A DNA stretch of 58,018 nt, filler included, from Stramenopiles sp. TOSAG23-6 (Eukaryota): the NCBI GenBank assembly GCA_900128565.1. It is 4 parts of 4 records of this genome, joined end to end, with 100 filler letters (N's around TTAATTAATTAA, not from the genome) between each part and the next. Parts side by side here need not be neighbours in the genome. Positions count along the whole stretch, not along the records: positions 43,646 to 58,018 come from LT636141.1; 3 more parts are not named here. The stretch is one strand, 5' to 3'. The notes beneath the pieces were generated by a model, which saw only the letters and a program-made list of their open reading frames with translations, was not told where the DNA came from and made no database searches. This document shows, piece after piece, positions 6,700-58,018 of this stretch (its first letter is position 1; each line of letters starts with the position of its first letter). Made by a program: the position numbers and the translations under genes.

Positions 6700-6783
6700 A
6701 ATTAGTAACCCTAACCCTACCTTGTATTTCACAAATACAATTTTGTAGAGAATTAGTAACCTCCTTTACCACTTAATGCAAAA

Positions 6784-7447: not shown

Positions 7448-7695
7448 ACTTTTCCTTTTCCATGAGAAGACCTAGTAAAACGTCCTACACAGACAGATTT
7501 CAATAACACAAACATAATAATTTTCAAAAAATATAGCAGAAAATCCGATCTTCGTTCCTACTAAACGCAAAAATATCCGTTAAAATTTTTGTAAAATCCA
7601 AAAACTGATCCCGTATCCAGTCCAGTTCTACGCTTGTGCATCCTAAAACAGACGAGCTAACAAATTCAAAGTAGTTTTAAATTTGATCAATTGAA

Positions 7696-8211
7696 ATGCG
7701 TCTTCTTGCATCCAATATTCAGAGAATTTTCGCCTCGACAATTGTAGTTTTACTGTATGTCTCTAGACCTGCGTTATCCCAGATGAAACCGGAAATGATG
7801 ACACAGAAAGAAGCTTACCATAAATCGTACATGACTGAATTGCGTAACGTTCATGTCGGTGCCTCTTCATTTATTCGTGCAATTAAGCAAACGAATTCTT
7901 CAAAAATGCCTCGTAAAATCTTTAAGGACTTGGGTACTCGTTTTCATACGCTTCACATCAAAGCAAATCACCCTAGTGTTGACATCGAAGGACAAAAGGT
8001 TCGCGATGAAATTTCATACTTATACGATACTATGAACGAAATTCTTCATTTAGACGGACCAGGAAGAAAACATCGAAAGCATGGATATCGAACTACTGCG
8101 AAAGACTATGTACGCTCTCGATTGTTAAGCTCTGAGGTTAAGTCAAACGAAATGAAGAAACGTGTCATGATGAAGTTACGCAAGGAATTCGATTGGGAAA
8201 AAGATCTCTGA
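7696..8211 (+). CDS. Hypothetical secretory-pathway protein (signal peptide, C-terminal EKDL)
   Basis: 171-aa ORF with a hydrophobic N-terminus and a KDEL-like end. Confidence 0.65.
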   Translation: MRLLASNIQRIFASTIVVLLYVSRPALSQMKPEMMTQKEAYHKSYMTELRNVHVGASSFIRAIKQTNSSKMPRKIFKDLGTRFHTLHIKANHPSVDIEGQKVRDEISYLYDTMNEILHLDGPGRKHRKHGYRTTAKDYVRSRLLSSEVKSNEMKKRVMMKLRKEFDWEKDL

Positions 8212-8377
8212 TAAACTTTATTGTTTCTTCAACGAAATTGTTTCTTCTACATTAATATTGAATTTATCTATCAAATCTTAAAATTAAATTATTATTATCG
8301 ATAAGTTCAAATATATTCAATTTTCTAGCCAATATTTTATTTTTGTCAACACAAAACTGTTCTGTTTTTTTAAAAGG

Positions 8378-9733
8378 TTAGTTGCGAGTGGCATTTTTAG
8401 CTGCAGCCCACCACTGTGGCTGAACTCCTTTCTTCGTATCATCCAAATATTCATTCATTGCTGCTCTGAATTCGTGCACTGAGACAATTCCATCTCCATT
8501 AAAGTCTTTTGCGGTGGCAGCTCTCCACCAGATACATTGAAACTGCTCGTCGGTAAAATTGTATCCGATATTTTGGAAAATATCTCGAATTTCTTCCTGT
8601 CCTCGATCATCAAAAAAATCATTATTATCAACACCTTCACTGACAAAATGACTTGGTGCAAGGAGCTCTTGTGCAGTGGGATCTGTGCCGTAGTTATTAT
8701 TATCTGCTACTGACCGCCGTTTTGGAACAGGTCTGTCAGTTCGAAGAGAAGGACAACCGAATGTTCGACCATCAATATTAAAATTTCGAGTACCCCGTTT
8801 AATTGCTCTACCAAGATCATTATCAGGTAGCTGTTCTTCAGTTGTATATGTTCCGCGTATGCATTCAGCAGCCCCCCAAGCATCTTTTCCTAGTTTTGCG
8901 ACTGAAGACTGAGTTCCGAAAGTGATTCCATCTGGAGATGATTGTCCCAGATTCTTTGGTTTACCCAGTTGTTCTCGTTGCAGCTGATAATCAAATGTAT
9001 TTTTTGAAATAATATATGTATCTGGTGCATACGGGTTACTAATATTCTTTTTAAAACAACTTGCAGTATTCATATCAAGTCCTGCTACATCGACTTTTCC
9101 AAAACGGTGAGTTGTGGAATTGATTCCTCCCCAGTCATAACTTCGTGACTTTTGATTCCCTGGTGGTATCGTTCCATGACTTTTTGTGTATATCTTATCT
9201 TTCTCTGTTGTGTCTTCATGGTTTTCTGGATATATCAATGGTTTTGCAAATGACTCATTAGCTTTTTGGGCACCAACAATACCAAACGCATATTCTTTTT
9301 TTAAAACGTGTCCAGGTAAAGAAACATTCTTTACTTGGCTGATACTTTTTCCGAGAGGTTTACTTTTCAGTCCACGATACATTCGTTCCTTGTTGGCCTC
9401 GATTAATCTCTGAGCTTGAGACTGTGGTCCATTAGCCCAGGCGTCGTTTATATGGTCACTGCTCTTTGAATTCAACCCGAAGGTCTGGTCAGAGGCTGAG
9501 AGTTTAGACCTTGCTGCCCTGATCATAGCTACGTCATCTGCTGTACCATAATGAATGTGTCTATCACCTGGTTTAAAGCAAGACTTTCGGAATTTTTTAA
9601 TTTTATCCGGAGTCGCTGGTCGCTCTGGCACATTGAGGCAATATTTTGTTCCTTCGTCAGGTACGACCGAAGACACACCTGCAGCTCGCACTGCTTGGAC
9701 GCCATACCCTGACATTGATCGTCTATTTGACAT
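8378..9733 (-). CDS. EFHB: EF-hand domain family member B (CFAP21), flagellar microtubule inner protein
   Basis: FGCPSLRTDRPVPKRRSVADNNNYG motif, repeated xFGx units, C-terminal EF hand DFNGDGIVSVHEF. Confidence 0.8.
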   Translation of the reverse strand: MSNRRSMSGYGVQAVRAAGVSSVVPDEGTKYCLNVPERPATPDKIKKFRKSCFKPGDRHIHYGTADDVAMIRAARSKLSASDQTFGLNSKSSDHINDAWANGPQSQAQRLIEANKERMYRGLKSKPLGKSISQVKNVSLPGHVLKKEYAFGIVGAQKANESFAKPLIYPENHEDTTEKDKIYTKSHGTIPPGNQKSRSYDWGGINSTTHRFGKVDVAGLDMNTASCFKKNISNPYAPDTYIISKNTFDYQLQREQLGKPKNLGQSSPDGITFGTQSSVAKLGKDAWGAAECIRGTYTTEEQLPDNDLGRAIKRGTRNFNIDGRTFGCPSLRTDRPVPKRRSVADNNNYGTDPTAQELLAPSHFVSEGVDNNDFFDDRGQEEIRDIFQNIGYNFTDEQFQCIWWRAATAKDFNGDGIVSVHEFRAAMNEYLDDTKKGVQPQWWAAAKNATRN

Positions 9734-9945
9734 ATCCAAATTGATAAACTAAAGGGTTTCTCAATTGAAGGACACCCTTTACAGCTATCTATAGTATAAG
9801 GCAAATTATTCTATGATGTATTTGAGAAGATGATTTGCTTCTTCAAGATGTAAAGTGTAACGGTAATATATTTATTTGACAAAAAAAACAGGTTTGTTCA
9901 AATATATTTTTTTATCTTTTTTATAATTATCTAAATTAGAATTCA

Positions 9946-12900
9946 TTAGAATTCATCAATATCATCTAGTCCATATCCTACAGAATTCTCGATAGCTGTG
10001 ATAATTTTTGTCCTTAATACAGTTACTAATTCTGTCCTGAGTATATCCATATTCAGTTGGCGATTTTCAGCTTTAGAAATAGCTATTAGTGAAGACCAAT
10101 AATTTGGTAAATCTAGTGTATTTGTACATGTATGTGCAGTTGGCATTTTATTCATCTGGGCCTGGTGCTCATCCAACGCATACGTAATAAATGGCATTTC
10201 AATTCGAAGAAGTTCTGTGCCTGGGAAGGGAAGTCGAGCTATTCCAGTGACAAATTTAAGAAATTTACGTTTTTGTTTCGGTGATAATCCCGTCACAACT
10301 TTCCAAAACGCTTTACGAAGTACAATATTATCATCAGACACTAATTCAGCATCTTCAATTACACGAAATACATCACGAAAATCAAAATCGGTCGTTGAAT
10401 TTGTCTGCAATCCACAGATGATTTTACTTAGCTGATTTTCATTCATTCGCAATACAGTAAAGTTTGCTATATAGTTACCTAAACTTCTCTGAAATCCGTA
10501 TGTAATTGCATCTAACTGCCATTCCACCCCATCCATGATTACCTGCCGGCATATATGTTGTGCATATGCTTCTCTAGGTAAAAATACATTAAATCCTTCA
10601 AGTTTCATCAAAGCATCATATTGCGATTTAGGTAATTCAAGTACCTTTAAAACTCGAATAGAAATATCATTATTAAAATCAACTAAATCTTCAAATTGAA
10701 GACTCTCGCGAAATTCTTTGGCAGAACGTCCAACGGTCCCAATTAAGTGCCGAAATAATAACGAGTTTAATTTCATATTTACGGTGCAACGAGATGATAT
10801 TGTTGATGCTAACATTATTCCAAGACAAGTATACCGAATAGTATTCTTTTCATTTCTTTGAATTTTAGGATTTAACCAAAAGCTTTCACATTCCTTTATA
10901 TATCGAAGTAGAGGTATTTGTGAACGACTACGCATTAATTTTGCATCTACTACATTGAGATTTTCCGCTTCATCCGAAGGACAGAAAAATATAGAACGGC
11001 TATCTTCAATACGCTGAACTTCGACTTCGATGACATTGGTCAGAGTTACTATTTGTAGCCTATCACGTGGTTTGATTTCAGTATCAAAGGATGATAATTC
11101 ATTTCCACAAAGCTTTAAAGAACTAGACCTTGAGGAAACTAAGCCGCTAATTGGTTCATAATTCAGCCAAGTCTTGTGTGTATCCATAGATGCTAATTCA
11201 AAGAATTCTTTCCTTGGCCCGGAACCTTCACCTTCTTCAACAATGTGACCGTCTATTTTTTTGTTACCAAAACTTGATGTAAAGTACGTACGTAAACGAA
11301 GACAACCTGTGGTTCGACGTAATATTCTTCCTTCATCAGTAATAATTCCTTTTTCTTGAAGTGACTTAATGAAGCCTTGAAACGAATTTTCTCGATTACA
11401 AACAATAGATATATATTCAGATTGGTCCACTGTATCGTTATCATTGGCATTATCCGTTTTTACCTGGTGATTTTCGAAACCACTATGATTTGGGTTGCTA
11501 CTGATTGCTCCAAGATTTGCTATTACGCCTTTACTGACAAAATCCAAAAGCCTAGGTACACTTTCACAAGTAAATTCTAGATCATTCTCACAAAATGACA
11601 TCTCTCTGAAAAGCTGGAGTTGCATATCTCGAAAATGGACAACTGCATGATGCGTGTTGTGAATGTCACTCAAAAATACGGTTGCAAATATTCTGACCAG
11701 TTCATTCAGTGGCTTGCATACAAGATAGGTTTCGTATTGGCTTGCTATTTTTTCACTATCAAAGTCATAATGATTTTCTTTGTAAAGTTTATCTAGTGTT
11801 TGGTGAATTATATCAATCGCATAAAAACGAACAACCATTGGCGGTCCTCCATCTACTCCAACTTGCCATTTTTTTGTCTGTTCTTTATGCCATCGATATG
11901 TTGCATTAATGAGCACATTCATTAGTTTCTTTGGTGTTTCTATTAGAGACGACGAATCTATTTCTGCATAATTAATGATGCTAAATAATGGCCCTAATAA
12001 GATTGATGTCACTTTACCTATATTAGTATGATTGAACATTTTAGTTTTTCTAACCTTGTTCAATGCTTTGGTTATTGAACTCTTGATAGTGGAATGTTTC
12101 TTATTTCCTTTAATGCTTTTGATTGAATTAAAAAAGATGGACCAAACCTTTGCTGCACTCGAATCATTTTGCATCCATTGTTTCCATAAGTCGCTACTTA
12201 CTTTGTGGGATTCTTCACCAGTCGGTTTTGAAGTAAATGACAACTCAAGGGTCTTTCCTGGTTTATCTGTATTCATTTTCTTTTGTTGTATATCCTTCAT
12301 TTTCTTTTGTTGTACATCCTTCATTTTCTCTGCAGACATTGTTTTTATTTGTTTCACTTGCTTAATTTCTGGTATTTTGGATCCTTCCTCTATTAGTGCG
12401 TCTGGCCGAGGTATCACGAAGCGTACAACTCTAGGACCTCCTTCGAATTTTTTCATTGTACTTACTACTTCGCGAATTGAGTATTGAGATACATCCACTC
12501 CGTTGATAGTAACTACCCTCATACCTAAATCTACACCTTGATTTTGTGCAGGACTACCTCCATTTTGCCTAGGCCGAAAGCCACTAACATAGCAACCTTT
12601 TCGATTTTTCCGTTGTCTCATGAGAACAAATAATGATTCTCCTGCATCTACAGACACATATACTTCCTGTAAACCTTTACTAGTTGCCTTGGCATCTTTT
12701 AGCATATTTGTCACACCTTTAGTCGCATCTTTCAAAGATATCTTTGATGATTTCTGGTGATTTGATTTCTTCTTCGATTTCGTAACTTTAGAATTTCGCG
12801 ATGCAGATATGTTTTTAGTCATTTCAGTTGGTTCTGGGGGCGAATCATCAGCACTACTGAGGGAATCATCCGTCGTCGCGTCCATTGTAGCCAAAATACG

Positions 12901-13572
12901 ATCTCGCATATTTATTGAAATATCACTATCTTTATTTTCTTCTAATATATCAGCTCTGTCCCAATCAAATCGTCCAAATCCTGCACTTTTTTCAGCAGCA
13001 ATAGTTATACTTTTATCACTAGTGCCCAAATCTGATACATCTTCATCCCAGTCTTCTGTCAAATTTAAAAGTGCATCCAAGCTACTTACACCAGCATTTT
13101 CTTTACTTATACTAGAACTTTCTCTGTTTTTATCGTAACTGACTTTATCTGTATGGTTGGTGGAGTTTTGATTTTGTTTTACGTATTGTTTTACTGAACT
13201 CCAACCGCCTCCATCCATTGCCCAACCACCACCATCTATTGAGTAACTAACCAAGTCGTCTATGTGTTTTTTATGTGGAATGTTTTTAGATCTATACATT
13301 GTTGAGCGAACCTGTTCTTCTTCGATGCCAAGTATATTGTTCATTATAGCTCCTCCTTGACGCTTCAAACTACTACCACGTGAAAATATATCACTTGTTA
13401 CATTATTTGAAGGTGAAAGGTCTGCAGATTTTGAGATATTTTCATATCGAGACACTCTATTAGATTTGTTATACGAATTTCCGAAAGAAGAAAAGTTTGA
13501 TATGTCTTCAACAACTTTCAAAGGATGGTGGGGCTCAGTTTCTCGTAAAAGACGCTCTAATTCATCATCCAT
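9946..13572 (-). CDS. HECT E3 ubiquitin ligase with PDZ-like domain
   Basis: GEGSGPRKEFF, KFLKFVTG, PTAHTCTNTLDLPNY (catalytic Cys). PDZ-like SPAQNQGVDLGMRVVTINGVDV. Confidence 0.9.
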   Translation of the reverse strand: MDDELERLLRETEPHHPLKVVEDISNFSSFGNSYNKSNRVSRYENISKSADLSPSNNVTSDIFSRGSSLKRQGGAIMNNILGIEEEQVRSTMYRSKNIPHKKHIDDLVSYSIDGGGWAMDGGGWSSVKQYVKQNQNSTNHTDKVSYDKNRESSSISKENAGVSSLDALLNLTEDWDEDVSDLGTSDKSITIAAEKSAGFGRFDWDRADILEENKDSDISINMRDRILATMDATTDDSLSSADDSPPEPTEMTKNISASRNSKVTKSKKKSNHQKSSKISLKDATKGVTNMLKDAKATSKGLQEVYVSVDAGESLFVLMRQRKNRKGCYVSGFRPRQNGGSPAQNQGVDLGMRVVTINGVDVSQYSIREVVSTMKKFEGGPRVVRFVIPRPDALIEEGSKIPEIKQVKQIKTMSAEKMKDVQQKKMKDIQQKKMNTDKPGKTLELSFTSKPTGEESHKVSSDLWKQWMQNDSSAAKVWSIFFNSIKSIKGNKKHSTIKSSITKALNKVRKTKMFNHTNIGKVTSILLGPLFSIINYAEIDSSSLIETPKKLMNVLINATYRWHKEQTKKWQVGVDGGPPMVVRFYAIDIIHQTLDKLYKENHYDFDSEKIASQYETYLVCKPLNELVRIFATVFLSDIHNTHHAVVHFRDMQLQLFREMSFCENDLEFTCESVPRLLDFVSKGVIANLGAISSNPNHSGFENHQVKTDNANDNDTVDQSEYISIVCNRENSFQGFIKSLQEKGIITDEGRILRRTTGCLRLRTYFTSSFGNKKIDGHIVEEGEGSGPRKEFFELASMDTHKTWLNYEPISGLVSSRSSSLKLCGNELSSFDTEIKPRDRLQIVTLTNVIEVEVQRIEDSRSIFFCPSDEAENLNVVDAKLMRSRSQIPLLRYIKECESFWLNPKIQRNEKNTIRYTCLGIMLASTISSRCTVNMKLNSLLFRHLIGTVGRSAKEFRESLQFEDLVDFNNDISIRVLKVLELPKSQYDALMKLEGFNVFLPREAYAQHICRQVIMDGVEWQLDAITYGFQRSLGNYIANFTVLRMNENQLSKIICGLQTNSTTDFDFRDVFRVIEDAELVSDDNIVLRKAFWKVVTGLSPKQKRKFLKFVTGIARLPFPGTELLRIEMPFITYALDEHQAQMNKMPTAHTCTNTLDLPNYWSSLIAISKAENRQLNMDILRTELVTVLRTKIITAIENSVGYGLDDIDEF

Positions 13573-13862
13573 GGTATAAGCTTTTTCCAAAAGGAAACGA
13601 TGATCACCAACTACTCATTTTCCGCACGTTCTCTCCTCGCAAAAAACTTCTTTGTTTGTTAAATAGAGCTTTTTACTCGTCTCGGAAGCGTGCAAGTCGA
13701 AGTATACTTGCAAGTCCCAAGTGAGGCGACAGTTACGACTTCGACTTCAAATATTTTTTTTCGAACGACGACGTCGTGTGCTTGACGAAGTGATTGGTCA
13801 AAAAACATCAACAAAGAAAATGAGTTGGAATCTGAATCGATTTTACTTTTTCAAGCTCACCG

Positions 13863-14508: not shown

Positions 14509-14608
14509 NNNNNNNNNNNNNNNNNNNNNNNNNNNNNNNNNNNNNNNNNNNNTTAATTAATTAANNNNNNNNNNNNNNNNNNNNNNNNNNNNNNNNNNNN
14601 NNNNNNNN
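14509..14608. other. Artificial contig linker (N-TTAATTAATTAA-N)
   Basis: Six-frame stop linker flanked by Ns. Confidence 0.98.
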
Positions 14609-25912: not shown

Positions 25913-28900
25913 TCAGAATTCAACAGCTGAATCTGAGCTACTCAAATCAAGGGTACTTGAATCTAAATCTAATGGACCCTCATCGACTGTATTCGCTAGA
26001 GGAATATCATTATCATTTCGAACAAATTGTGCAACAGGCACATCATCATGTACATTCACAACTTCTAAGTTTCCACCATCATTTTGTGCAATGGGCACTT
26101 CTTCGTCATGTAAATCAACTACTTCTAAATTCTCACCCTTACTGTCATCTTGTTCATCATTTTCTTCAATTTTATCGCGTATTTTCTCGTCGCGCATTTT
26201 CTCTTCATTTTTTGTAAGATTTAACCAAGTACGATCGTTATGTGCTTGATCATCAACTTTACTCTCACTATATTTAACCTTCTTTTTTGATGATTTCTTC
26301 ACTTCCGTTTTACTCTCCATATACTTCATCTTCTTTTTCTCCATTTTCATTGGTAAAGGATGAATTTTCTCCTCGACAAACTTTAAGCTGACACTTTCTT
26401 CACTAGTTGAATTGATGCTATCAAAACTTTGATCATCCGTCTCAAGATTTGATGGACCACATCCAACAGAATGTCCATTCGTGGAGTCAGTAGGAGTAAT
26501 GGCTGCTAGACATGATGACGCAGAATGAGATCTAGCCTTCTTATTAGATCTTCCGATAGTAAATTTCTTGAAATTCCACGCGGTTCTTTTCTTCTCCGAT
26601 AAACCACGTTCTACATCCATGGCCCCAGTACCAAGTAAACTTGTTTCTTTGTCGACAGTTCCATCTTCAAGATTAATCATTGTCTGGCAACCTGAATCCA
26701 CTGAATCAAATTGAATAGAAACCTCGCGAGACTGTTTTCTCCGACGTCGTATTCTCATGACATATGCAGCTATTCCAAAAATAGTAGCAAAAATTGTTGT
26801 ACAAATCAAAGCAATTACAACACCTTTGTTTTCTTTGCGACCACGATCCAAAAGTACAGCAGATTTTGTAAAAGATTTGTCAATTTTCCGTGTAATTGTT
26901 CCTGTGTATAACTTCCCTTTAAAGTCCTTTATCACTGAGTTGACACTATCCACATTTAATCTTCGACTGCCAACAAGATAAACTTTCGCTAAAATTGCAT
27001 CTGCATCAATACCGTATTTTGAGTCACCTCCACCATCGGGTATTTCACCGTCACCACCGTATCCATAAGGTTGCACAGATGCAATTATAACAGTCCCTAC
27101 TATACTAGAATCATCATCATCACTACTATCTGATGGCATTCGTCTCCTATTTTGCGTTTCATGGTCATGTGTATTGTTTTCACCATAATATTGTGCAGTA
27201 TCGTGCAGTTCATTTTTATTCAAATTATGAAAACCATCACTACTGTACCCAAGTTTACGTGCAAGTGAGCTATCCAAGAGAGCAAGTTTTCGCTCTTCTT
27301 CTATGGTATGAACATGCATTGCATTGACATATTCGTTTTGTTTACTTTTTGTTGGATTCATTACTAACTTCCGATTTTTGCGACCTTTTCGTTTTCTACT
27401 TGTTAAGTGAGCAAATCCTTCGGTGATTTCATTCTCAAAAGCTTTTATCCAAGAACTTGGATCTTCCCAATATTCTGAGAACTTTTGATGAACTTTAAAT
27501 GTGACAAGAATAATTGTAGCTTCCCGACCTTCACAAAGACCAACATTACATGATCGTCCTTGAAGTGATGGTCCCAAACCTAAAGCTATGCAACTCAATC
27601 CTTCACCCTTAGGCGATGGATTAGTGCATGATCTGTGTCGTATTTGCAAGCCGATAAAAGACCCCTCATAACCCTCGCACTTAGTCGAACACTCAGACCA
27701 TTCAGAATACGCGGAATATCCACCATCTATCGCATCTGTACCTAATTTCTTATCCATGTTTTCATCATTATAGACAATTGTACCACGATTCAGCATTGCG
27801 GGTCCGCGCCCATTCTCTATAGCAGGTGTAGAAACGTACAACTCTGTGCCTGTTGTCCAATCACATAGAGGATCATTTTTACAATCAGCAAAAGGATGTT
27901 CACTGCATGTTTCCGCAATATCCAATCGAACTCTACAATGACCAGGATATGTATTGTGGGTTTCTTTTATCCAACGGCACGCAGTTGTTTTGTTATCGGA
28001 AAATTTCTTAGAATTGCACAATGGAGATGATGTAATCGAGTCACAGGCTACTGCAGCCCAGCAACCACCAATAAGACGTTCACTCCATGTATTCCCAGCT
28101 GAAGGAGTAAGATTGAACGCAGGAATATCTGTTCTCAGTTGAAAACCTGAAGGGTGAGCAAGAGTTCGAATATTTCCACCAAAACTACTTGGATAAGCTC
28201 GAGGAAGTTCATTACATGAACCCTTATTAGTCATCTCAATACTTGTTATTGTACCATTTCCATCAACCAAGTATTTCCCTATAGGTTTGCTAGAACATTT
28301 CCCGCCACGAAAGACAATGTCACCTGATACATAATCTTTCCCCCCCGAGATAATTACGACCTTAACCTGAAAGGGGGCACCACCTTCTGATATAACACTA
28401 AACATAGCTTGCTTACCATCAATAAAAAAGACAGCTTTTGCACCAGCTTTAGACGCCCTATCGACATAATTCCATAAATGAAAGCATCTACACACTACCT
28501 TGGATGCCCGTAATATTATTGAATATTTGTTCGTCGCTAAGCAATGAACATTTCTGGCATTGAATCTGATCATTAGAGACACAAAATGAGTGTAGATGAT
28601 GAACAAGTTTCACATTAAGTTTAGATAAAGCTGGATACTTGATAGGATTAAACTCTGCTTGCCCAACTTCATAATAGTCCGCAATACTTGATGGTGCAAC
28701 TAACCTCACTTCAGTAGATGACATTTGCGATGATGATGGACAACTTCCTTCAGTTGAAAGTGCTTTTCCAGCTACAATCTTTGGGAGATAAAATTGGGTT
28801 GTTCCAGAACCATCAATAGCTTTTTCTAATATTTCACCCTGATGTGTACGTACAACAAACGTAGGAATCAATCTTTTTGCTTGAGCATGTATTGGATCAC

Positions 28901-29055
28901 TACCTAATGTGAAGACTGTTTCACCTTCAATAACAATCACAACACCTTTACCATCACATGCTTTGCATGCACGAGTTATTGTGTCCCATTCACCCAAACA
29001 ACTAACTTCTTTGGAAAATACCAAAGCAATTTTATCTCTCAAAGCAGAACAGTTT
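25913..29055 (-). CDS. Type I membrane protein with PA-like domains and a thrombospondin type-1 repeat (5' partial; frame break near 28490-28600)
   Basis: DRASKAGAKAVFFI (PA-like), DGGYSAYSEWSECSTKC...RHRSCTNPSP (TSP1), TM VVIALICTTIFATIFGIAAYVM. Confidence 0.75.
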
Positions 29056-29155
29056 NNNNNNNNNNNNNNNNNNNNNNNNNNNNNNNNNNNNNNNNNNNNT
29101 TAATTAATTAANNNNNNNNNNNNNNNNNNNNNNNNNNNNNNNNNNNNNNNNNNNN
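29056..29155. other. Artificial contig linker
   Basis: N-TTAATTAATTAA-N. Confidence 0.98.
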
Positions 29156-41000: not shown

Positions 41001-43545
41001 CTGACCGTGTAATAATAACTTCACCTATATTAAGTTCGTTTGAATCTAGTGAACTCCAGACTGGTCTTGATGTACTTGATATTGTATCCGTGCGCATATC
41101 TAAATACCTCTGGCTTTCAGGAATAGAAACGTTGTAAGAATTTACTTTGACATTTCCTTCCCCTGCTAGTTGTGATGTTTTTGATGGACTGTACTTAATA
41201 TGAACATAAGAATTACATAATTTCCCGTCGAAACGGGAAATATTTATTCCTTTGATTACTTGTACTTGGAAAATCAAATCAATATTTTTCACTTCTTGTA
41301 TTAAATGATGTCGATCATTAAAGCTTTGCTTATTGTATATAAATGATTTACTTCCATGAATGTGTTGAATAGTACTACTATTCAATTTACTCAAAGTTTT
41401 CTTCTTTTCTATTCTTTTTTTTTCTTCTTTTTTTCGTGCTTCAATATTACGTTTTTGTCTATTATAAGCAAATGATGCCGGTAAAGGATTTTTATCTAAA
41501 GTATGCAATTTTGGACAGATGTGAATGAGAGCAGGTCTGTAATTACGTAAATTTGATATTGGATTCCCTTCTAATTGAAGATGTCTCAATCCCGTGACTA
41601 ATGATATTGATCGCAAAGCAAATCCATTTAATATTTTATTACTCCTCAAATCTAAATCTGTTAATCTTGTAAGGGCATTTAAGTGATCTGGAAAACGTAT
41701 TCTATTATGAGATACTAGTAACTTCGTTAATGATGCACATTTACTTAGTCCTTCCAGGGAAGTCAAGCGATTGTGTGATAAGTTCAATTTTCTTAAGGAA
41801 GGCATAGTTTGAAATACATTTAAATTTTCTATATTTGATATATAGTTATGTGAGACATCTAATTCACGAAGACTATTTAAATGGGGTAAAGCAAGAGTCG
41901 ATGAATTGATAGATTCAATGTTATTATGGGAAAGATCTAAAAATACAATACAAGCAGTATTGTTCCATTCAAGTCCTGCTCTAGACAGACTTACTAATTG
42001 TCTACCACTTAATCGCAATGTTTGATTTTCAATTATTTCATTTTGCGGAATTCCATTTGAATCGAACAAATTTTCTTGTTTCGAAAGAGATTTTAGTGAT
42101 TCTGGATTAGATTCATTTAAAGCACTTTCTACATCATCTTCGGATTGGTCAGCATTATCCTCAATTTTTGTATTTTGTAATGGATGTAATGTTTCATCTA
42201 CTTGTTGCCGTAATTGATTATTGTGATTCATACTATTTATGCAAAAATTATGGAATGTACTTGAATTAACATCATCAGCATCAGCTGAAAACCAGAAGTT
42301 CACCTCCGCATTAATTGTCGACAGATGTTTTGGACGATTTCCATACTTTACAATATTTACGCGTCTACTTATAGGTGTTGTAACATGAATTGGTATGTTA
42401 TCATTGTCACGATTAAACTTTAAAAAATTCCATTCTTCAAGAATAGATTTCAAACCAATACGCGCTATATATCCTTCTGCATTGGGGGTAACTATTTCCT
42501 CTGGATCTTCAATAATTGTGGTTACTTTTGGTTGTGGAATTAGTGAAATTGATATATGCTCATTGCCGTCAAAATAGCTATCAAACTGAAACTCTACTAT
42601 ACTTTTGGAATCTTTACGAATATCTATGTCACGTTTTTGTCCATTAAAATGAAGAACACATTGATTCTGAAATAATTGATCCACGGTCTCATTTTTGTGT
42701 ATGGTTGGAATAATGTTAATACAAACTACGTGAATTGCCATTAATACAGGTATGTCTTCTTTTTTCGTTTTATTGTCACCATGAGAAGCTTCATCTATTT
42801 CAGAAATGTCGGATGAAATACCGAAAGTGTCTGTGTATACTGTATCCTCTGTGTTTTGCGAATGTACAAGCGACTTTGCTGATTTTGATCTAATCTTCTT
42901 TTTTCGGGACTTCTTTGAAGATTTTCGCTTTTTCATTACAACGTTTTTGCTTCAAGCGTTCGTTCTATATGCGATGAAGAGCGAGAACAAAATAAGAGTA
43001 TAGTCCTGTGAGTCTACTGTATTTGAATGATCACTATTTTTTGCAAAATTTTCTTCTTTAGAAGCGTTGGAGTTTGGATTTTCGCTTTCTTGACTGAAAG
43101 TATTCGTATCAGTGCTACTACTTTCATAATTACTTTGTACATTTTCTGTAATAACTTCTTCTTTCATTGTGCTCTTTGTATCCATATCTTGATGACTAAT
43201 ACTTTTATCATTACTTTGTACATTTTCTATAATAGGTTCTTCTTTTATGTTTGTTTCAACATCTATAGAATTTGAGACGTCATTTGGTATTACAATACTA
43301 TCAACATTATCTTCCACAATACTATCAACATTATCTTCCACAATACTATCAACATTATCTTCCACACCAATGATACTATTTTTATACTCGGCAATAATGT
43401 CATTTTCAATTCCACCGACAGCTTCTTCTTCAGTGTATTCTATCTCTTTATTTACTTCATCACTAGAAGGAATTTTGCTTAAGACTACAAGTGCATCAGG
43501 CGATGCTTTTGGTGTTTCATATTCATCATCTTCAAGTTTATGCAT
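38026..43545 (-). CDS. Large LRR + C2 + WW domain protein (5' partial; one in-frame TGA inside an inverted 55-bp insert)
   Basis: LRRs (LDLSHNNI, LNLSHNRL, LEGNPI), C2 (VSVWDENTFNGDSLIG), WW (LPSGWKSAVSRSNGHKYY). ORFs 43545-42952 and 42936-38026 share a frame. Confidence 0.8.
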
Positions 43546-43645
43546 NNNNNNNNNNNNNNNNNNNNNNNNNNNNNNNNNNNNNNNNNNNNTTAATTAATTA
43601 ANNNNNNNNNNNNNNNNNNNNNNNNNNNNNNNNNNNNNNNNNNNN
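43546..43645. other. Artificial contig linker
   Basis: N-TTAATTAATTAA-N. Confidence 0.98.
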
Positions 43646-48841: not shown

Positions 48842-48925
48842 GCACGAATGACGGAGTGGTCTAACGTGGTGCTTTCAAGCAGCATTCCTCGCATGAGGGC
48901 CAGGGTTCAAATCCCTGTTCGTGCA
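48842..48925 (+). tRNA. tRNA-Leu(CAA)
   Basis: Acceptor stem GCACGAA/TTCGTGC, D-loop GGAGTGGTCTAA, anticodon arm GTGCT-TTCAAGC-AGCAT, long variable arm, T-arm CAGGG-TTCAAAT-CCCTG. Confidence 0.93.
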
Positions 48926-49691: not shown

Positions 49692-52324
49692 TCAAGGTAT
49701 ATGAGAAGAAGCAATTTGAAGACGTGCTCGCTCTCTAGCACGTTTACGTGCCGCTAATATATCAATTTGTGCTTGTTTCGTATAGTCAACAAATACATCT
49801 TTTGATATTTTTGCGGGTCGTTTTGTAGCTGCACCTCTAGCTAATATTTCAGCTTGTTTTTTATCAAATTTTTTCTTGTTTTTAAGAGATGAACTTTGAA
49901 ATGATGTTTTTTTCATACCAAAGCTATTTTTTTTATTGTGTTGAAATGATGTTTTTTTCACACCAAAGCTATTTTTTTTATTGTGTTGAAATGACATTAT
50001 TCTCTTGTTTACTGGTATTTTACTATTATTAGTAACATTTCCAAATAAATCAGATATTGTACCTGTGTTTTCATTATTTTCATTATGTTCATTATTTTCA
50101 TTATTTCTGATATCTATTGTAGTTTCTAGTAATTTTGATATTATATTTTCGATACTTCCATTATACTGTTTCATTGCTTCGATACATTTGTTTCTTTCAA
50201 AGCCCATATTTAAAAGTACCTTCAGATCTGATTTTGAAGTAATTGTTTTATTTTCTTTTCTTTGTTTTTCGTCTCCAAAAAAATCAATATAATCATTTTC
50301 ATTTGTTTTTGTTTCGACATTTACAATAGTATTATTGTTTTCTCTTTCTTGTCTTACAATAGTATTATTGTTTTCTCTTTCTTGTCTTCGATGTCGTAAC
50401 AAACCTGATGATGTGAGATCATATATAGATGGTGATGGTAGTTCTGATGGAGGTGTATTGTGGTTTATATCACTCAAATCATTTGAATCGTTGCTATTTG
50501 GTAGTAAAAGTGGATTAACTATATTATCTGTATTTAAATTATTCACATTTGCATGTATTGTATTAGATTTATATTTTGGTGAATTTATGAGTCTTTTAGC
50601 GCTATTCGCTGCAGCCGATTGTATAGATGTATTTATAGTATTCATTGTAGATGTTTTAGAATTTTGATGTTCATGTCCATCACTATAGTGAACAGAATGT
50701 ATCACACGCACAGTATCATTATTCACCATTACATCACTTACAGGAATACTATCTGAGATGTTTGAAATATCTTTTGGGGGAAATCCAATTAAGCATTTAA
50801 TATGAGAAGTTTGACTCCAACCACTTAATTTTAAAATTGATTTTCGAAGAGAGCGTAACGGTAATGTGGGATCAATATTGTGTAGAGTATGTGTCGTATT
50901 GCCGCTCAAGTCAGAGCGTATACGAATTCTCACTGACCAAAAGTCAGTATCACATTTCNTACCTAATGAATTTCGAATTTGTTGAGTGCTAATTTCACTA
51001 CTACTATTATGATTATCATTATTATTATTATTGTCATTATTATTATTATTACTACTATTATATAATGTTTCTACATATTGTGAATTATTACTGACTATCG
51101 ATGCTTCTACTTTGTTGCTTTTTACATTATAATTAGTATTACTTTTTACATTATAATTAGTATTACTTTTTACATTATTATCAGTTGTATTTGTCGATTG
51201 GTGAATATTCCATCTATTACCTCTTTTATACGTAAAAAGTGGCGACTTCCCTCCACCCAAGACATTACCAATACCAGTAAAACCTGTCGTTGCGATAGGA
51301 CCTCCACTACGCTTATTTTTTCTTCGTTTTTCTCGTTCTTCACGAGCTCTTGTCTCTGCTGCTGTATCGTTTTCATCTGTGTTACCATCAACCACATCAC
51401 TTTTTGGTGGATATGGTGGTGTATTCTTATTACTATTACTACTATTATAGTTCTTATTACTATTATTACTACTATTATAGTTCTTACTATTATTAGGGAG
51501 ATGCTTTATTCGAGGCATGATCCTTCCAGGTGTGTATTGTGAAAAAATATTTAATTTTGTTTTTGTTAGATATGAAATTTCGTATGAAAAAAAATATATA
51601 TATATAAATTTGAAATTCATGATGAAAAAACATACGTAATACCAGTATTCAATATAGTTGACTTTATGTCCAGAGGCGGCGCGAAATCGACAACAAGGTC
51701 AACATGTCCATATAAGCTAACAGCTCTTTCAGGTTTCAATTCTATTACATCAAGATAGTATTGTACACCTTGCCACTCGAGCATTACTGTCTGCCGCATC
51801 GTTAGTGCTGAAAACATACTAAATGTATTTTCTAATAATTTTTTAGGACCAACTGTTGCTGCCACATCGAGAAACGCCGAAGAATGTGGTTGAAAACGAC
51901 AATATGTTCCCCGTTTTAACTCCCGACAACTTCGAAGAGTGGCTGTGTCGCCTTCGTTCAANGAAAGATTTTTCATCATCCNGAAAGGTAAGAACGCTTT
52001 TCCTTCTGGTGCTGAGAATTCCATTACACCACAAAATTGTAGTTTTCGCTTTCGTGTAGTGTTTAATGTCGAGGTATTATGTTTTTCTACACGTCGTTTT
52101 CGAGAAATCTCTTCTTCTTTATCCGTATTTGTGACTCGAAAAAGTAATGGATAAGGAAGCCCAAGAACAGATATTTGATGTAAAGCTGACTGTGGTAATA
52201 CAACTTTATCACCATTCTCCAATTGCGGTTTGTCAACACAAGCAACACTAAAGCAACTATAACTCTCTTGGAACAAAGCAGCTCTCTTTGGACTCCGAGA
52301 ACGTCTCTGCGAAGGAAGATCCAT
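49692..52324 (-). CDS. UFD1-like N-domain protein with ubiquitin-like and UBA domains; exons 52324-51636, 51531-49692
   Basis: GDKVVLPQSAL, CGVMEFSAPEG, VDFAPPL (UFD1). LIGFPPK (UBX/UBL). LLNMGFERNKC (UBA). Confidence 0.85.
51532..51635 (-). mobile_element. Introner-family intron, 104 nt, GT...AC
   Basis: ATTAC|GTATGTTTTTTCATCATGAATTT...CATACGAAATTTCATATCTAAC...CACAATACAC|ACCT. Confidence 0.8.
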
Positions 52325-52609
52325 TAGGAGAAAGTAAACTAAATTACTCTATGAAATTCATCATCTATCTACCTGACTATTTATCTGGTTTACTATAATA
52401 TTGAAATAAGATGAATTTTCAATTTGACAGTTTCTTAGTAAATATAGCAATGAAACTGTGGAGAAAAATACCTATTACTACAAACTCTACCTCTTTTTTG
52501 CTTCACTCTTTTATTCGTCTCTTACAAAATAATAGTATAAATATCTTGGTAGTTAATCATCTCCAAAAGCAAAACTTGAGCAATCATTGATAAATGTCTT
52601 TTGTATGAA

Positions 52610-55453
52610 ATGGATCATAATCCATTAATCGAACTTCTAGAATATTATGTAAGCGAAGATGCCATAGCTGAACTTATCGAGAAGGATCCTTCAGTAACGC
52701 GAAAACTTGACAGATATGGTCGATATCCTCTCCATATAGCCGTCAAAAATAATCACTCCACAAAAGTAGTTGAAATTATTTTAGATACAAATCCTTTAGC
52801 TGCTTCCCATGCAGACAAGTATAATAGAATGCCTCTCCATTGGTCAAGTCAATCAACAGCGGCAGTATTAAAAAGTGTATTGAAAGCTTATCCAGCTGCT
52901 GTCGAAGTTGCCGACGAAAAGGACAGGTTTCCTCTACACTTGGCACTTCTAGAGTGTGCTCCCATAGCAAACATATATTTATTAACAACAGCATTTCCGG
53001 GTGCAGTCAAAGCAGTAGATAAAAATGGTCGGCTACCCCTTCATATCGCTTTACAAGCCTACGGATGGAATTTTGAGGTGATCAATCTTCTACTAGAAAT
53101 ATACCCCAACGCAGTGCGACAAAGAGACCAATATGAAATGCTTCCTCTTCATTATATATCTAGCTCTATCCCTAAAGAACACAAAAGGCAACACGAAATG
53201 TGTCGCAAGACGAAACCTGTTGAAAGACTTCTTGAATATNTCAGAACAAAAGTTCTACAATTACGGAAACAATCTAGAGAACATCAAATTTACGTACGTG
53301 AAAAAGCTGAAAAGAAAATGTTGGAATCAATGCGAGACCCAACGGCTTATTTAAAATCAAAGGCTTTGAGGGATGCTGTGGATGTACCCAAACGGGAGGC
53401 AAAACGTAAAAATGCCGCAAAAGAAGAAAAAGAAACTCTGGAAATTTTAGATTCAATGGGCAAAATAAAATATTTTAAAGGTGTCCTTGAAAATTCAAGA
53501 TTGCAGGTACTACAACAAATAAGCAGTGGTTACGCAGATGCAATGATATCTCCCGACACATCGGGAAATCTTCCGATTCACTGTGCGCTTTTACAACGAG
53601 CTGGATTAAAAATTATAGACGCCTTGGTACCTACATGGGCACGTGAAATTCCTAAAACAAAAAACAACGAAGGCTCATTACCCATACATTTAGCTTGTAG
53701 AAATGACGCATCATTAGCTATATTGAAACGTTTAATATCAGCTTTTCCCGAAAGTATTCGAGAACCAGATGATAATGGCAATCATCCATTACATCTAGCA
53801 TGTAAGTATAATTCTTCACCTGAAAATATTGAATACTTGTGTGAAACGCGTCAAAAGTCTGCTCGAACTCCAAATTCGTATGGGAATATACCTTTACATA
53901 TTGCAGTAAACCCAATACGTCCTTCCGTACTACAAGCCAATGCGATTGAAGAAGCTATAAATGCATCTAATGCAGCAACGGAGAAAGTTTTGAAAGAATT
54001 ATTAAACTATCAAAAGCGCACTAAAAAAAAAGAGAAAAGGCAATCTACTGGGAGAGGATCGCTAGATTTCCCATCAAAGATGGGTGGATTATCAAAGACA
54101 CCTGTAGAACCACTAATTGCGTCGGCTTCACTTAGAGTTATAAATATATTAATTGGTATCAATCCCAAAGGAGTTTCCACTCCAAACATAGATAAAGCTT
54201 TGCCTCTTCACATTGCAGTATTAAACAAAGCTCCCTTAGATGTTGTAAATCGACTTCTAGAATTATATCCAGACGCCACAAATGTTCCTATACGTGGAGG
54301 ACGACTTCCGATACATATTGCAACTACTCATGGAGCATCTATTAAAGTAGTAAAATCTCTCATAAATGCCTTTCCATCTAGTGTCTCTATCCCTGATAAC
54401 GCAAAACAATTGCCTTTACATAATGCTGTGCGCACAAAGGCAAATGAGTTAGTAATTGCCGCATTAGTTAAAGAAAACCCCAGCAGTGCAAAATGTTTTG
54501 ACAACGAAAATATGTTACCGCTACAATGGGCTTTGTGGCAAGGGTGTAGCACTAATGTAGTAAAGTGTATATTAAAAGCATTTCCAAAAGCAACATTGCA
54601 ACCTGATCAATACAAAATGTTACCAATTCATTGGGCTGCTTTAAACATAGCCCCTCTGGCACTCGTAAAAGCATTAATATTTGCAAACAAGAGTGCCTTG
54701 CAGAGAGGTGACTGTAACTTAAATTTACCTATTCATTTAGCAATGCAACCCAAAGCAGAAGTTCAAACGGTAAAAGCTATGATGAAGTCATACAGCAAGT
54801 CAATAAGCGCAGTGAATCACCATGGAATGACACCTCTGCATTGTGCGGCTAAAAATTCCGCTTCAGTGGAGATTTTACAAACTGTCTTGTCGTATCATAA
54901 TGAAGCCCGAAATACTAAAGACTGTTGGGGAAAGACGCCTTTACATTGGGTTGCCCAATGTAAAGGAAATGTAGCAACTCTGAATGTTTTACTAAATAAT
55001 TGCTTGACTGGTGCAACTGCAGTTGATGACGAAGGCAATACACCACTTCATCTCAGTGTAAAATATAATGCAACTCTACCAGTTATTTTACGATTAATTG
55101 GGGAATGTCCAGAAGCTGCAAAATGTGCAAATAATGATGACGAAATACCCCTTCATACTGCTGCGAGATTTTCTAATTCATGCATGGTAGTAAATGCTCT
55201 ATTAGAAGCAAATCCAAACGGATCGTTTACATATGCACGCCCAGAGGGTCCCAAAGGTCCACGTAAACTTCCTATATACTTTGCAGCTGCTCGAGGAGCT
55301 CCACTGGATTTTGTAAATGCTTTATTAAGCGTAAATACAAATACCAGCTTACAACCCGAAGGAAAGAAAAGATTACCACTCCGTGCTGCTAAAAAGGTTG
55401 CTTCTGAGAATGGCCATAAAGCTATTGTGGATCGGCTGAACGACTTCAAGTAA
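52610..55453 (+). CDS. Ankyrin-repeat protein
   Basis: Many G.LPLHxA repeats over about 950 aa. Confidence 0.92.
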   Translation: MDHNPLIELLEYYVSEDAIAELIEKDPSVTRKLDRYGRYPLHIAVKNNHSTKVVEIILDTNPLAASHADKYNRMPLHWSSQSTAAVLKSVLKAYPAAVEVADEKDRFPLHLALLECAPIANIYLLTTAFPGAVKAVDKNGRLPLHIALQAYGWNFEVINLLLEIYPNAVRQRDQYEMLPLHYISSSIPKEHKRQHEMCRKTKPVERLLEYXRTKVLQLRKQSREHQIYVREKAEKKMLESMRDPTAYLKSKALRDAVDVPKREAKRKNAAKEEKETLEILDSMGKIKYFKGVLENSRLQVLQQISSGYADAMISPDTSGNLPIHCALLQRAGLKIIDALVPTWAREIPKTKNNEGSLPIHLACRNDASLAILKRLISAFPESIREPDDNGNHPLHLACKYNSSPENIEYLCETRQKSARTPNSYGNIPLHIAVNPIRPSVLQANAIEEAINASNAATEKVLKELLNYQKRTKKKEKRQSTGRGSLDFPSKMGGLSKTPVEPLIASASLRVINILIGINPKGVSTPNIDKALPLHIAVLNKAPLDVVNRLLELYPDATNVPIRGGRLPIHIATTHGASIKVVKSLINAFPSSVSIPDNAKQLPLHNAVRTKANELVIAALVKENPSSAKCFDNENMLPLQWALWQGCSTNVVKCILKAFPKATLQPDQYKMLPIHWAALNIAPLALVKALIFANKSALQRGDCNLNLPIHLAMQPKAEVQTVKAMMKSYSKSISAVNHHGMTPLHCAAKNSASVEILQTVLSYHNEARNTKDCWGKTPLHWVAQCKGNVATLNVLLNNCLTGATAVDDEGNTPLHLSVKYNATLPVILRLIGECPEAAKCANNDDEIPLHTAARFSNSCMVVNALLEANPNGSFTYARPEGPKGPRKLPIYFAAARGAPLDFVNALLSVNTNTSLQPEGKKRLPLRAAKKVASENGHKAIVDRLNDFK

Positions 55454-55552
55454 GTTGCTTTAGAAACAATAATGTAGTATGTAAAAAATAAAAGTTATTT
55501 TATTACTCTATATAATGATGTGCAAAAAATAAAAATATGTTTTAAAATCATT

Positions 55553-56806
55553 TCATCTACAACATGCACTCTCAATACTCTCTTTCTTTATCTTTGTATT
55601 TTTATTCATCGGAGAATTCTGAAGAATCTTTAACTGCTCATTTGCCTTTGCAGTTTCAAGCTCCAATTGTAATATTTTTTGTCTTGTCTCTTCCCTTTTT
55701 GCCTCTTGCATTTGTATTTTTTCAAGCATTTCATTCTCTAGTTTCTGTTGCTCGCTTAACAGTGCTTGTGCCTCTGTGATTTCTTTCAGGCGAAGATCTA
55801 TCTTTTCTTGCTCTTCTTTGTATTTTGTCTCAAAATCAGTTGCATCTTTTTCTTTCTTCATACGTAAGTTTTTTCTGTGTTCCTCGGCGCCTCGTCTTAA
55901 TTCGGCACCTTCTTCCAGCAATGCGTACTGGAACCTTGAAATACTATCCCGAAATTTTTCGATTCCAGTGTTTTGCCTTTCTATCTCGGAATTCAAAATA
56001 TTCTGAAATTTATCTCGCAATGTTGTAAGATCTTTGTTTCTAGTGCGATTTAGATCATCCAGGCCATTTATGACATCTGATATCATTTCTTCAGTTGGAG
56101 AGCCGCAATCTCCAACGCTAGAAAGTTTGTTTTTTAACCTATTGAAATCTGCCTTATGTGAAAGTTGCATCTGCATCAATTCATCATAGAAGGCTAAGTG
56201 TAGCTTACTATTCTCTTGAATTATTCTAGCGTGTTCAATCTCTTCCTGTGTAAGACGTCCCAGATCCTCTACAGATGATTTCGTTTCTCCCGTTGCTATA
56301 TTGAATGCGTGTTTATACCCAGCAGCATTTTCAGTTTCATAATACTCCGATGGAAACATTGCCAAATGATGCTTACTTACTTCGCGTTCAGCATCATTCT
56401 TAACAGTGAAAAGAACTCTAGGATGTTCTGGTTTAGGTTCTCCCGGCTTCCGTTTGTTTGCGGGTATAAGGCAGGCCACTACCGAATATCCAGCATCATT
56501 ATGAGTTTCTCCTCTAACTAAAATGACATCATCTCCAAAACCCTTATATAAGTCACTTTCGCCAGCTTCTGTCGGAAATTTAATTTCCTTTTGATTTTTT
56601 TGATTTCCATTTTGCTCATCCAATTTTATAGAATTGTAAAAATCCTTAATGACTTGTTCATCACTCTGTATTTGGTTGTCGTCAATTTTAACACCATAGA
56701 GGGTATCAACATCATTCCTTCTAACAGAATCGTTCATACCATAGATGGAATCCAACTGAGAACCATACACCAATTCGTCTTCTGCAACGTCCGAAGTGCT
56801 GAACAT
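55553..56806 (-). CDS. Coiled-coil hypothetical protein ending SACCR
   Basis: 417-aa ORF with an E/K/Q-rich coiled-coil C-half. Confidence 0.75.
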   Translation of the reverse strand: MFSTSDVAEDELVYGSQLDSIYGMNDSVRRNDVDTLYGVKIDDNQIQSDEQVIKDFYNSIKLDEQNGNQKNQKEIKFPTEAGESDLYKGFGDDVILVRGETHNDAGYSVVACLIPANKRKPGEPKPEHPRVLFTVKNDAEREVSKHHLAMFPSEYYETENAAGYKHAFNIATGETKSSVEDLGRLTQEEIEHARIIQENSKLHLAFYDELMQMQLSHKADFNRLKNKLSSVGDCGSPTEEMISDVINGLDDLNRTRNKDLTTLRDKFQNILNSEIERQNTGIEKFRDSISRFQYALLEEGAELRRGAEEHRKNLRMKKEKDATDFETKYKEEQEKIDLRLKEITEAQALLSEQQKLENEMLEKIQMQEAKREETRQKILQLELETAKANEQLKILQNSPMNKNTKIKKESIESACCR

Positions 56807-57145
56807 CCTAACTATATGGTGATCGTTGTATCTTTTATTAATCGGGATTCGTCTTATATTTATTGTTTCTTAAAATATGTTCTCTTAAAAGAAGATACCG
56901 TAACAAGCAAAACCGTTACAAGCGGTACAGCGCTATATTTCCAAATATCTACTAGCTAGGGTTGGGGGAATAAAAAAGTTCAGCTTGGAATCAAAATATC
57001 TCGAAAAAACGAAATCTTTTTTAACCTTTTGCGTTTTCTTCAAACAGTAAAATTAGAATACCTGTGTATTATTTGCAAGAGCTACGAGTGTTTTATACCA
57101 ATGAGAGGTACTTACTTCGATTATGTAGATTTGTGATATGTTCCC

Positions 57146-57929
57146 ATGATAATTTATCCATTTAGGCTCTGTAGAACTCTCACTGGGCGATTTTCTTACG
57201 CATTGCCCAGTACAATTACCAAAAAGTTACCACTTGTTGTACCGCAGTTTCGACAGTATAGTTGTAGGTTCAGTGATACTGAGCTGCAAAACGAGTATAT
57301 AAGAGCCCGCTTAGGAACAAGTTTCATTGTAGTAGATAAACCTGCTGATATAACGTCTCACGATGTTATTGATATCATACGTGCTGCTACTGGGTTAAAA
57401 AAAGTCGGCCATAGTGGCACACTGTATTTTTTCTAAATGGTACAAATAGTATTCAACGATTCATCACTCATAGAATTCTTATTTTTCATGCATAGTACAA
57501 ATTTTATATTAAGCACAATATATAGATCCCTTTGCAACGGGTTGTTTGCCGATTGCTCTAGGTAAAACGACTAAAACGATTCGATTCTTGGAAGAGTATG
57601 AAAAAAAATACGAGGCGACAATGTATTTTTTATTTTTTTGAAAATTTGAATTTATTTTTTTCGTACGAAATTTTGTACCTAACAAAAAAATCTAAAAATT
57701 TTTTTTGAAATATTTTTCCAAAATACATTTCCTTTGGATTGAAAACATCAACTGGTGATGTTGATGGAGATATTTTACAGTCTGAAGTGATTCCAAATTT
57801 TTTAAAAAATATTCATCAAGATGAAAATAAACGGAAAGTCCAATTCGTATTGGATCAATTTCTTGGTAAAAGTGTACAGAAGCCTCCTATTTTTTCTGCA
57901 GTCAAAGTAAAGGGGAAAGCCTTATATAA
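57146..57929 (+). CDS. truB: tRNA pseudouridine(55) synthase TruB, organellar; exons 57146-57423, 57524-57622, 57729-57929 (3' partial)
   Basis: [12 protein letters not shown], spliced [54 protein letters not shown]. Confidence 0.93.
57424..57523 (+). other. GT...AT intron lacking the recognisable introner core, 100 nt
   Basis: ACACT|GTATTTT...CACAATATAT|AGATCCC restores catalytic GTLDP. Confidence 0.85.
57623..57728 (+). mobile_element. Introner-family intron, 106 nt, GT...AT
   Basis: ACAAT|GTATTTTTT...TTTCGTACGAAATTTTGTACCTAAC...CCAAAATACAT|TTCC. Confidence 0.9.
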
Positions 57930-58018
57930 GTACGTTTTCATTATGAATTTCATTTTTTTTTTTTTTTTTTTGGTTTCGTACGAAATTTTTTACCTAACAA
58001 ATGTTGAATTTATTTTTT
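57930..58018 (+). mobile_element. Introner-family intron (truncated at window end)
   Basis: TATAA|GTACGTTTTCATTATGAATTT...TTTCGTACGAAATTTTTTACCTAAC. Confidence 0.85.

Follow-up and report, generated by a model that had tools for sequence, protein, structure and literature searches.

A probable GT...AT intron before the catalytic aspartate of an organelle-type TruB gene in a marine eukaryote

We propose, with a probability of about 0.78, that positions 57424-57523 of the window (the whole stretch of DNA that was analysed, 58,018 nucleotides long) are a genuine spliceosomal intron in an organelle-type TruB gene of a marine eukaryote, removed as GU...AU (or UG...UA) under a regime in which the 3' splice site is of YAY type. 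Judging from its sequence, the host gene at 57146-57929 is a TruB-family pseudouridine synthase, a putative enzyme whose N-terminus, encoded in exon 1, looks like an organelle-targeting presequence. Its parts are the following:

57146-57423 (+), coding exon 1 of the TruB-family pseudouridine synthase, an open frame from the first in-frame ATG to ...GGC ACA CT
57424-57523 (+), intron 1, 100 nt, GT..AT (the same as TG..TA at 57423-57522), skipped by an RNA contig
57424-57432 (+), 5' splice motif GTATTTTTT of intron 1, 9.97 bits on the family 5' matrix
57514-57523 (+), 3' end motif CACAATATAT of intron 1, 11.78 bits on the family 3' matrix
57524-57525 (+), unused AG (context TATAG) right after the splice site, kept in the RNA contig
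57525-57527 (+), GAT, the Asp of GTLDP by alignment with residue 48 of 1r3f_A
57524-57622 (+), exon 2, Pfam TruB_N 37.1 bits, covered by the RNA contig to 57615
57623-57728 (+), intron 2, a family copy of 106 nt (nhmmer E 1.2e-13) that holds TTTCGTACGAAA and TACCTAAC
57729-57929 (+), exon 3, Pfam TruB_N 40.2 bits, profile positions 50-107
57930-58018 (+), intron 3, a family copy (GTACGTTTTC...) incomplete at the window end, nhmmer E 8.2e-09, model positions 1-68

The last part of exon 1, which ends ...VGHAGT, can be aligned with chains of TruB, Cbf5 and dyskerin (17 distinct PDB sequences at E<=1, the best being 1sgv_A at E 1.4e-05). Exon 2 opens with an Asp, at which the TruB_N match resumes (profile position 16) and which aligns with residue 48 of the E. 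coli TruB chain 1r3f_A, in DPLATG; we take this Asp of GTLDP to be the catalytic residue of the enzyme. Both exon 2 (57525-57620 as translated, profile positions 16-47) and exon 3 score above the Pfam cut-off of 27.3, and across intron 2 the profile passes from position 47 to position 50 with two residues between. Once 57424-57523 and 57623-57728 are taken out, a single open frame runs from 57137 to 57929 through exons 1-3, and a GHxGTLD motif with its Asp exists only when 57424-57523 or its equivalents are removed. Intron 2 has two possible readings, GT..AT or AT..AC, and the frame is open only in this register. Relatives of exon 1 were found at 25 loci, each matching only residues 39-95 at 43-70% identity; we read these loci as probable bacterial TruB genes, and no eukaryotic relative is among them. 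A word search for relatives of exon 3 at longer lengths gave 0 matches.

The intron is preceded by GGC (57416-57418), ACA (57419-57421) and CT (57422-57423) and opens with GT at 57424-57425; it closes with ...CACAATATAT, its AT at 57522-57523, and is followed by A (57524), GAT (57525-57527) and CCC. Joining 57423 to 57524 gives G-T-L-D-P within one open frame. A profile built from bacterial TruB homologues, 19 of the 25 loci, served to score 247 donor/acceptor pairs (13 donors by 19 acceptors); the other loci had been dropped for reasons such as a frame shorter than 150 aa or a contig end that cuts them. The top three pairs, at 154.4 bits, were TG..TA, GT..AT and TA..TA, all of 100 nt and all yielding GTLDP. 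The original prediction, that a GT...AT intron at this place restores GTLDP, is thus borne out by the scoring and, as described below, by RNA. It had also held that the AG two bases further on would shift the frame if used with the same donor, and this is what is seen: the GT donor with the AG at 57524-57525 scores 50.7 bits, with a frameshift and 10 stop codons. With AT..AG (57426-57525), the sole in-frame pair to end in AG, the Asp becomes Tyr, and an AT-AC register is indeed impossible at intron 1, the exon side being CT.

Five seawater metatranscriptome runs contain a small part of the words of 50000-58018, and four of these five were compared with 51983-58018. In X5, a poly(A) metatranscriptome, contig record 25 (350 nt, depth 2.8) aligns to 57167-57422 and then to 57523-57615. 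It skips 100 nt with the ends TG..TA, and one base of slack makes GT..AT equally good; the two forms give identical mRNA and are indistinguishable. According to this contig the mRNA reads ...CACT joined to AGATCC..., with the AG retained in the exon, so that the TA..TA and AT..AG forms of intron 1 are excluded. The junction of intron 1 is thus seen in RNA and matches the requirements of frame and homology. The junction for which a cDNA check had been called for is found exactly as proposed in one environmental poly(A) RNA contig, and the AG acceptor was unused, as claimed, despite a TAG 2 nt downstream. Support for the junction is one contig from one study, among four runs. Of its 349 aligned bases, 2 are unlike the window, one in each piece, so that the contig comes from a close but non-identical genotype; only 1 nt is common to both sides of the junction, which makes an artefact of 31-mer assembly or of template switching unlikely. 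A 151-nt contig from an RNA library, X2 record 12, is unspliced and runs from exon 1 into intron 1 (57284-57434).

Introns 2 and 3 belong to a repeat family, for which we built a profile from 12 copies, leaving intron 1 out, and searched with nhmmer --max, filters off. At E<=3.4e-6 this profile detects 17 copies across the window, including a previously unlisted one at 16607-16518 (-). All 17 lie in genes and in sense orientation, for which the chance is 2^-17. The host genes of family copies are:

ABC transporter gene
histidine phosphatase gene
Rheb-like GTPase gene
AI-2E transporter gene
UFD1-containing gene
TruB gene, by Pfam TruB_N
13.8-15.1 kb (+), a gene with three copies, its identity without a Pfam assignment
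34.9-37.8 kb (-), a gene with no match in the Pfam scan

The register of splicing was examined with the donor fixed at the family-homologous G in 13 introns (12 family copies and TruB intron 1). At first-pass coordinates, 12 of the 13 leave the frame open only in register 0 mod 3, ending after the terminal YAY; the thirteenth (fam5) fits with its donor moved 5 nt downstream to the family-homologous GT at 17171, a choice made post hoc. For two copies (fam10 and fam11) further registers are open too, and the test is weaker there. Whole-gene models of the AI-2E transporter and the phosphatase are open with three introns each removed in the YAY register. In the Rheb-like gene only the ...CAT register lets the Pfam Ras profile continue from position 121 to 122 over the intron with no indel, and the in-frame AG 3 nt further on would cost one residue. 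No AG occurs within 15 nt of the 3' end in 6 of the 12 family copies examined. Among the 13 complete copies the end is CAT in 11, TAT in 1 and CAC in 1, and the start is GT in 11, GA in 1 (in the Rheb-like gene) and AT in 1. The terminal pair GT..AT thus holds for most copies, the exceptions being a final AC in one copy, an initial GA in another and an initial AT in a third. Eight of the 13 complete copies have no exon-side AT, which excludes the AT-AC register for those eight; they still need the ...YAY register, and intron 1 is in this sense not the only decisive case.

Conservation in the family is highest, at 12-13 of 13, in CTAAC, about 45 nt upstream of the 3' end, and in the four bases that close the intron; it is lower in the palindromic core, and +5 is G in 15 of 16 family 5' ends. 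Individual copies show some variation. At 23419-23328 (-), the intron of the Rheb-like GTPase starts with GA (GAACGTTTTC), and its Ras profile boundary supports GA...CAT. At 51635-51532 (-), an intron after the UFD1 domains ends in CAC at the homologous position, which the frame needs, so that the terminal base is not strictly T. At 17017-16923 (-), an intron of the histidine phosphatase gene starts ATACGT, with A at +1, and the gene model is open once it is removed. The copy at 16607-16518 (-) is diverged (90 nt, E 1.5e-06), in frame and stop-free, its host frame being open whether the copy is spliced or retained. Contigs from three seawater RNA runs cover the family core at 57639-57840 to a summed depth of 8,090-13,833 and have a wide variety of flanks at their loose ends; environmental RNA libraries are rich in the family repeat, whether it is present there as RNA before splicing or as DNA carried over. 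A family 25-mer gave 0 matches in a collection of genome contigs and 0 in one of viral contigs.

Whether intron 1 belongs to this family has a different answer for its interior and for its ends. As predicted, it lacks the repeat core: none of the 10 window matches to the TTTCGTACGAAA core (0.2 expected) and none of the 13 to TACCTAAC (1.04 expected) falls within 57424-57523, the family profile gives no nhmmer match there even at E<=10, and in blastn the best non-self match of intron 1 covers no more than 18 nt (E 0.18). Summed depths in the RNA runs are 62 to 13,833 for the bin of the family core and 1.6 to 13.8 for the bin with most of intron 1, so that there is no sign of a high-copy family for intron 1. 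Its ends are family-like. The first 9 bases, GTATTTTTT, are the first 9 of intron 2; the 5' score of 9.97 bits is equalled or beaten at 47 of 116,016 window positions (real copies 7.9-14.4), and the 3' score of 11.78 bits at 21 of 116,016 (real copies 1.6-15.9), many of these high-scoring positions being the family copies themselves. With its final 10 bases, CACAATATAT, intron 1 ends just as the copy at 22805 (-) does; each strand of the window has this exact 10-mer once. Intron 1 also resembles the family in length (100 nt vs 88-106 nt) and in its sense orientation. It would be either a heavily decayed copy of which only the ends are kept or an unrelated intron with identical end signals, and it is non-family in its interior only.

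The description of intron 1 as a non-family intron consequently stands for the interior, which has no detectable similarity, and not for the first 9 and last 10 bases, which fit the family end motifs. Nothing dates 57424-57523, and its being old is left without support; the further claim that the AT acceptor is not just a transposon scar does not follow either, given family-like ends and an intron that may be a decayed copy. That non-family introns keep AT was upheld for intron 1, and for it alone (n=1), the other candidate in the window not being an intron. This second candidate, at about 28472-28613 (-), was rejected on its homologues (14 at E<=0.001, 8 fetched), which align unbroken through the stretch to 28467-28602; the overlapping frames at 28467-28609 (-), in a large TSP1-domain gene, point to a 1-nt frameshift or an assembly error. 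A word search for relatives of the ORF at 28608-29048 gave 0 matches. A matrix scan for GT...YAY pairs outside known copies returned six, one of which is TruB intron 1, the other five lying antisense to, or inside, long coding frames. At 25856-25732 (-), shortly after the stop codon of the TSP1-domain gene and on the strand opposite the final exon of the AI-2E gene, there is a family-like pair of end motifs, the 3' one with CAG at its end (CACAAGACAG).

In the mechanism that we propose, the pre-mRNA would be cut at GU...AU, or at the indistinguishable UG...UA, and the UAG two bases downstream would be bypassed. The 3' splice site would be a YAY triplet, mostly CAU or UAU, that closes an A-rich motif CA[A/C]AAUAYAU, instead of AG; the 5' site would stay of the ordinary U2 type, GUAYGU, and a CUAAC about 45 nt upstream in the family copies would be a branch-like site. 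The machinery would then be a U2-type spliceosome in which the choice of the 3' site has moved to YAY, the 3' end being the sole departure: GTAYGT, CTAAC and the T-rich tracts are all signals of the usual U2 kind. We infer this machinery, its branch site and the reading of the end motifs as signals from such features, which intron 1 shows in part. Its 5' end is GTATTT, most family copies having GTAYGT, in line with a GTRNGT-like consensus. At the 3' end it has AT where U2-type introns have AG, and its last three bases are the YAY triplet TAT. Intron 1 has no CTAAC; what it has are five candidate branch sites that fit yTnAy loosely, at distances of 17-60 nt from its 3' end. If the end motifs are signals that the machinery reads, intron 1 would be expected to keep its ends, with the rest of its similarity to the introner family lost or never present.

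The skipped 100 nt could also be explained by an empty site, the X5 contig having been transcribed from an allele or strain without the insertion and the copy in the assembly being a recent one. Introner-type elements are often polymorphic, the contig stems from a natural population and carries the two differences given above, and an intron-less allele would yield an identical contig. Recent transposition is nevertheless not indicated, as intron 1 is not a detectable member of the family; both neighbouring exons are intact, the codon interrupted is the one before the catalytic Asp of a conserved enzyme, and an unspliced allele would be null; the 17 sense-oriented family copies, which preserve the frame in the same register, point to splicing, and the X5 library was poly(A)-selected. 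We regard an empty site as improbable on this account. A shade less probable again is an intron of U12 type: the minor spliceosome tolerates non-AG ends, GT-AT is a known rare U12 pair, and intron 1 starts with GTATTTTTT and has a weak TATTAAG some 11-13 nt from its end. This TATTAAG is the only approach to a branch box TCCTTRAY at 10-26 nt from the 3' end, neither TCCTTAAC nor TTTGA occurs in intron 1, and the CTAAC of the family, about 45 nt from the 3' end, is too distant. The 5' box [AG]TATCCTT is not matched: intron 1 has T at +5 and +6, and at +5 the family copies have G with the one exception noted, where the U12 box has C. For comparison, the available text on Physarum gives its U12-type introns the 5' motif [G/A]TATC[C/T]TTT and a branch site 10-12 nt from the 3' end (bioRxiv 10.1101/2020.10.12.336362).

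The least probable of these accounts is a non-conventional excision that is guided by pairing of the intron ends, as in euglenids and hemistasiid diplonemids, and not by recognition of a 3' site. The minimum-energy fold pairs the 5' with the 3' end in 6 of 7 folded introns, intron 1 included, and the family has terminal inverted repeats, ATGTAT...ATACAT; the non-canonical introns of diplonemids have ends that pair, according to the accessible part of the source (PMC12621601). The folds are, however, no stabler than shuffles (z -1.05 to +1.65), the terminal helices have 4-10 pairs, mostly A-U, and GU...AU ends self-pair anyway. The 5' GTAYGT and the CTAAC are ordinary spliceosomal signals, and the ends here are uniform, whereas diplonemid ends are described in that part of the source as C/G-rich and without consensus (PMC12621601).

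Removal by a U2-type spliceosome at a YAY site, the reading that we prefer, appears to have its nearest described counterpart in Fritillaria. Non-canonical introns of the larvaceans Fritillaria borealis and F. pellucida were reportedly the subject of Henriet et al. in 2019. In the available sections of a later study, 3' AT is the most frequent intron end, at 34% in F. borealis and 44% in F. pellucida (Soo et al., NAR 2026, PMC13326754), and the sections at hand of two sources attribute to Fritillaria a YAY end, a MITE/introner origin with TIRs and TSDs, a U2-type spliceosome and duplicated U2AF subunits (PMC13326754; PMC11282704). On the strength of these excerpts, the shared traits would be the 3' AT, the YAY triplet, a U-rich tract that is kept, the link to introners and the U2-type signals, the last of which we infer for the present case. 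Unlike in Fritillaria, the host has no animal look, no YAY precedes the 5' site of intron 1 (ACT), and the introns start with GT in a yeast-like GTAYGT, whereas the major F. borealis classes in the same excerpts start with AG (AG/AC 18%, AG/AT 16%).

Introner elements offer a further comparison, those of Micromonas and Aureococcus reportedly having been described by Huff et al. in 2016. As far as the accessible portions of Gozashti et al. (2022 and 2025, PMC12130899) allow a comparison, the present family is like introners in being short and uniform (88-106 nt), sense-oriented and provided with its own splice signals, and in having TIRs and an AT duplication that would permit precise removal. 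Described introners were curated there with 3' AG or AC ends; the 2025 survey, in the portions consulted, accepted only AG/AC 3' sites and discarded families with unfamiliar sites that had no RNA support (PMC12130899). Intron 1 itself is unlike introners in that it is not a detectable member of the family. Amoebophrya is likewise a marine protist with introner-type repeats, which carry inverted and direct repeats, and with non-GT/AG introns (Farhat et al. 2021, PMC7789003), the boundaries of which are highly variable and strain-specific in the passages available, unlike the uniform GT...YAY here (PMC7789003). In the U12-type introns of Physarum, GT-AT is a real boundary pair and the 3' dinucleotide is flexible, again as far as the available text goes (bioRxiv 10.1101/2020.10.12.336362); the present introns differ from these in having no U12 5' box and no near-3' branch box, the family signals being of U2 type. 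We found no genome dominated by GT-AT introns described in the literature, in which the Fritillaria class tables may list GT/AT classes.

The 3' AG of introns is among the most conserved of eukaryotic signals, and its routine replacement by AT has so far been described for fritillariid tunicates. If our reading is true, a second and unrelated lineage with the YAY solution and a normal GT start would make the problem comparative: it could be asked which changes in U2AF, second-step factors or snRNAs have arisen repeatedly, and whether a spliceosome is driven by an introner invasion towards whichever ends the transposon has. In such genomes, gene prediction restricted to GT-AG would break essential genes, and here it would delete the catalytic Asp of TruB; introner surveys that trust annotated AG/AC ends would miss such families. 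A broader proposition, to which we give somewhat less than even odds, is that a marine protist has, independently of Fritillaria, shifted its major spliceosome from AG to YAY (mainly AU) with GU kept, that the shift is general and includes non-family introns, that introner invasion drove it, and that standard gene callers would in consequence mis-annotate most genes with introns in this lineage.

We take the host to be a marine protist and not a larvacean, as it has no animal look. A fritillariid host was considered and rejected on the relatives of the ArfGAP and on the EF-P and AI-2E genes. No animal-named protein is among the 120 listed ArfGAP relatives, the named ones being from green plants, green algae, a brown alga and an amoebozoan, and the window holds an EF-P with a presequence-like extension and an AI-2E transporter. 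To our knowledge, both EF-P and the AI-2E transporter are absent from animals. The EF-P gene at 6046-6696 (+) is complete, with KOW, OB and C-terminal domains and the presequence-like extension at its N-terminus, which suggests that EF-P would be organellar in this eukaryote.

The window consists of four contigs of about 14.4 kb with 30-39% G+C; the genomes of Amoebophrya are much higher in G+C. On the minus strand, a lone stop at 42952-42954 splits two long ORFs in the same frame, 43593-42955 and 42951-38029 (1641 aa); these are possibly neighbouring genes, unless the stop is an error. A gene cluster at 44.3-47.5 kb (-) comprises 4 ORFs without a Pfam match and gave no interpretable exon chain. 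Rfam detected no minor snRNA within the window, and a tRNA-Leu (CAA) at 48842-48925 (+), the one tRNA, is the only Rfam or ARAGORN match. The contigs are joined at 14509-14608, 29056-29155 and 43546-43645, each time by N44-TTAATTAATTAA-N44, a six-frame stop linker, and the two contig ends at the first of these gaps fall within family copies, as would be expected where repeats interrupt an assembly.
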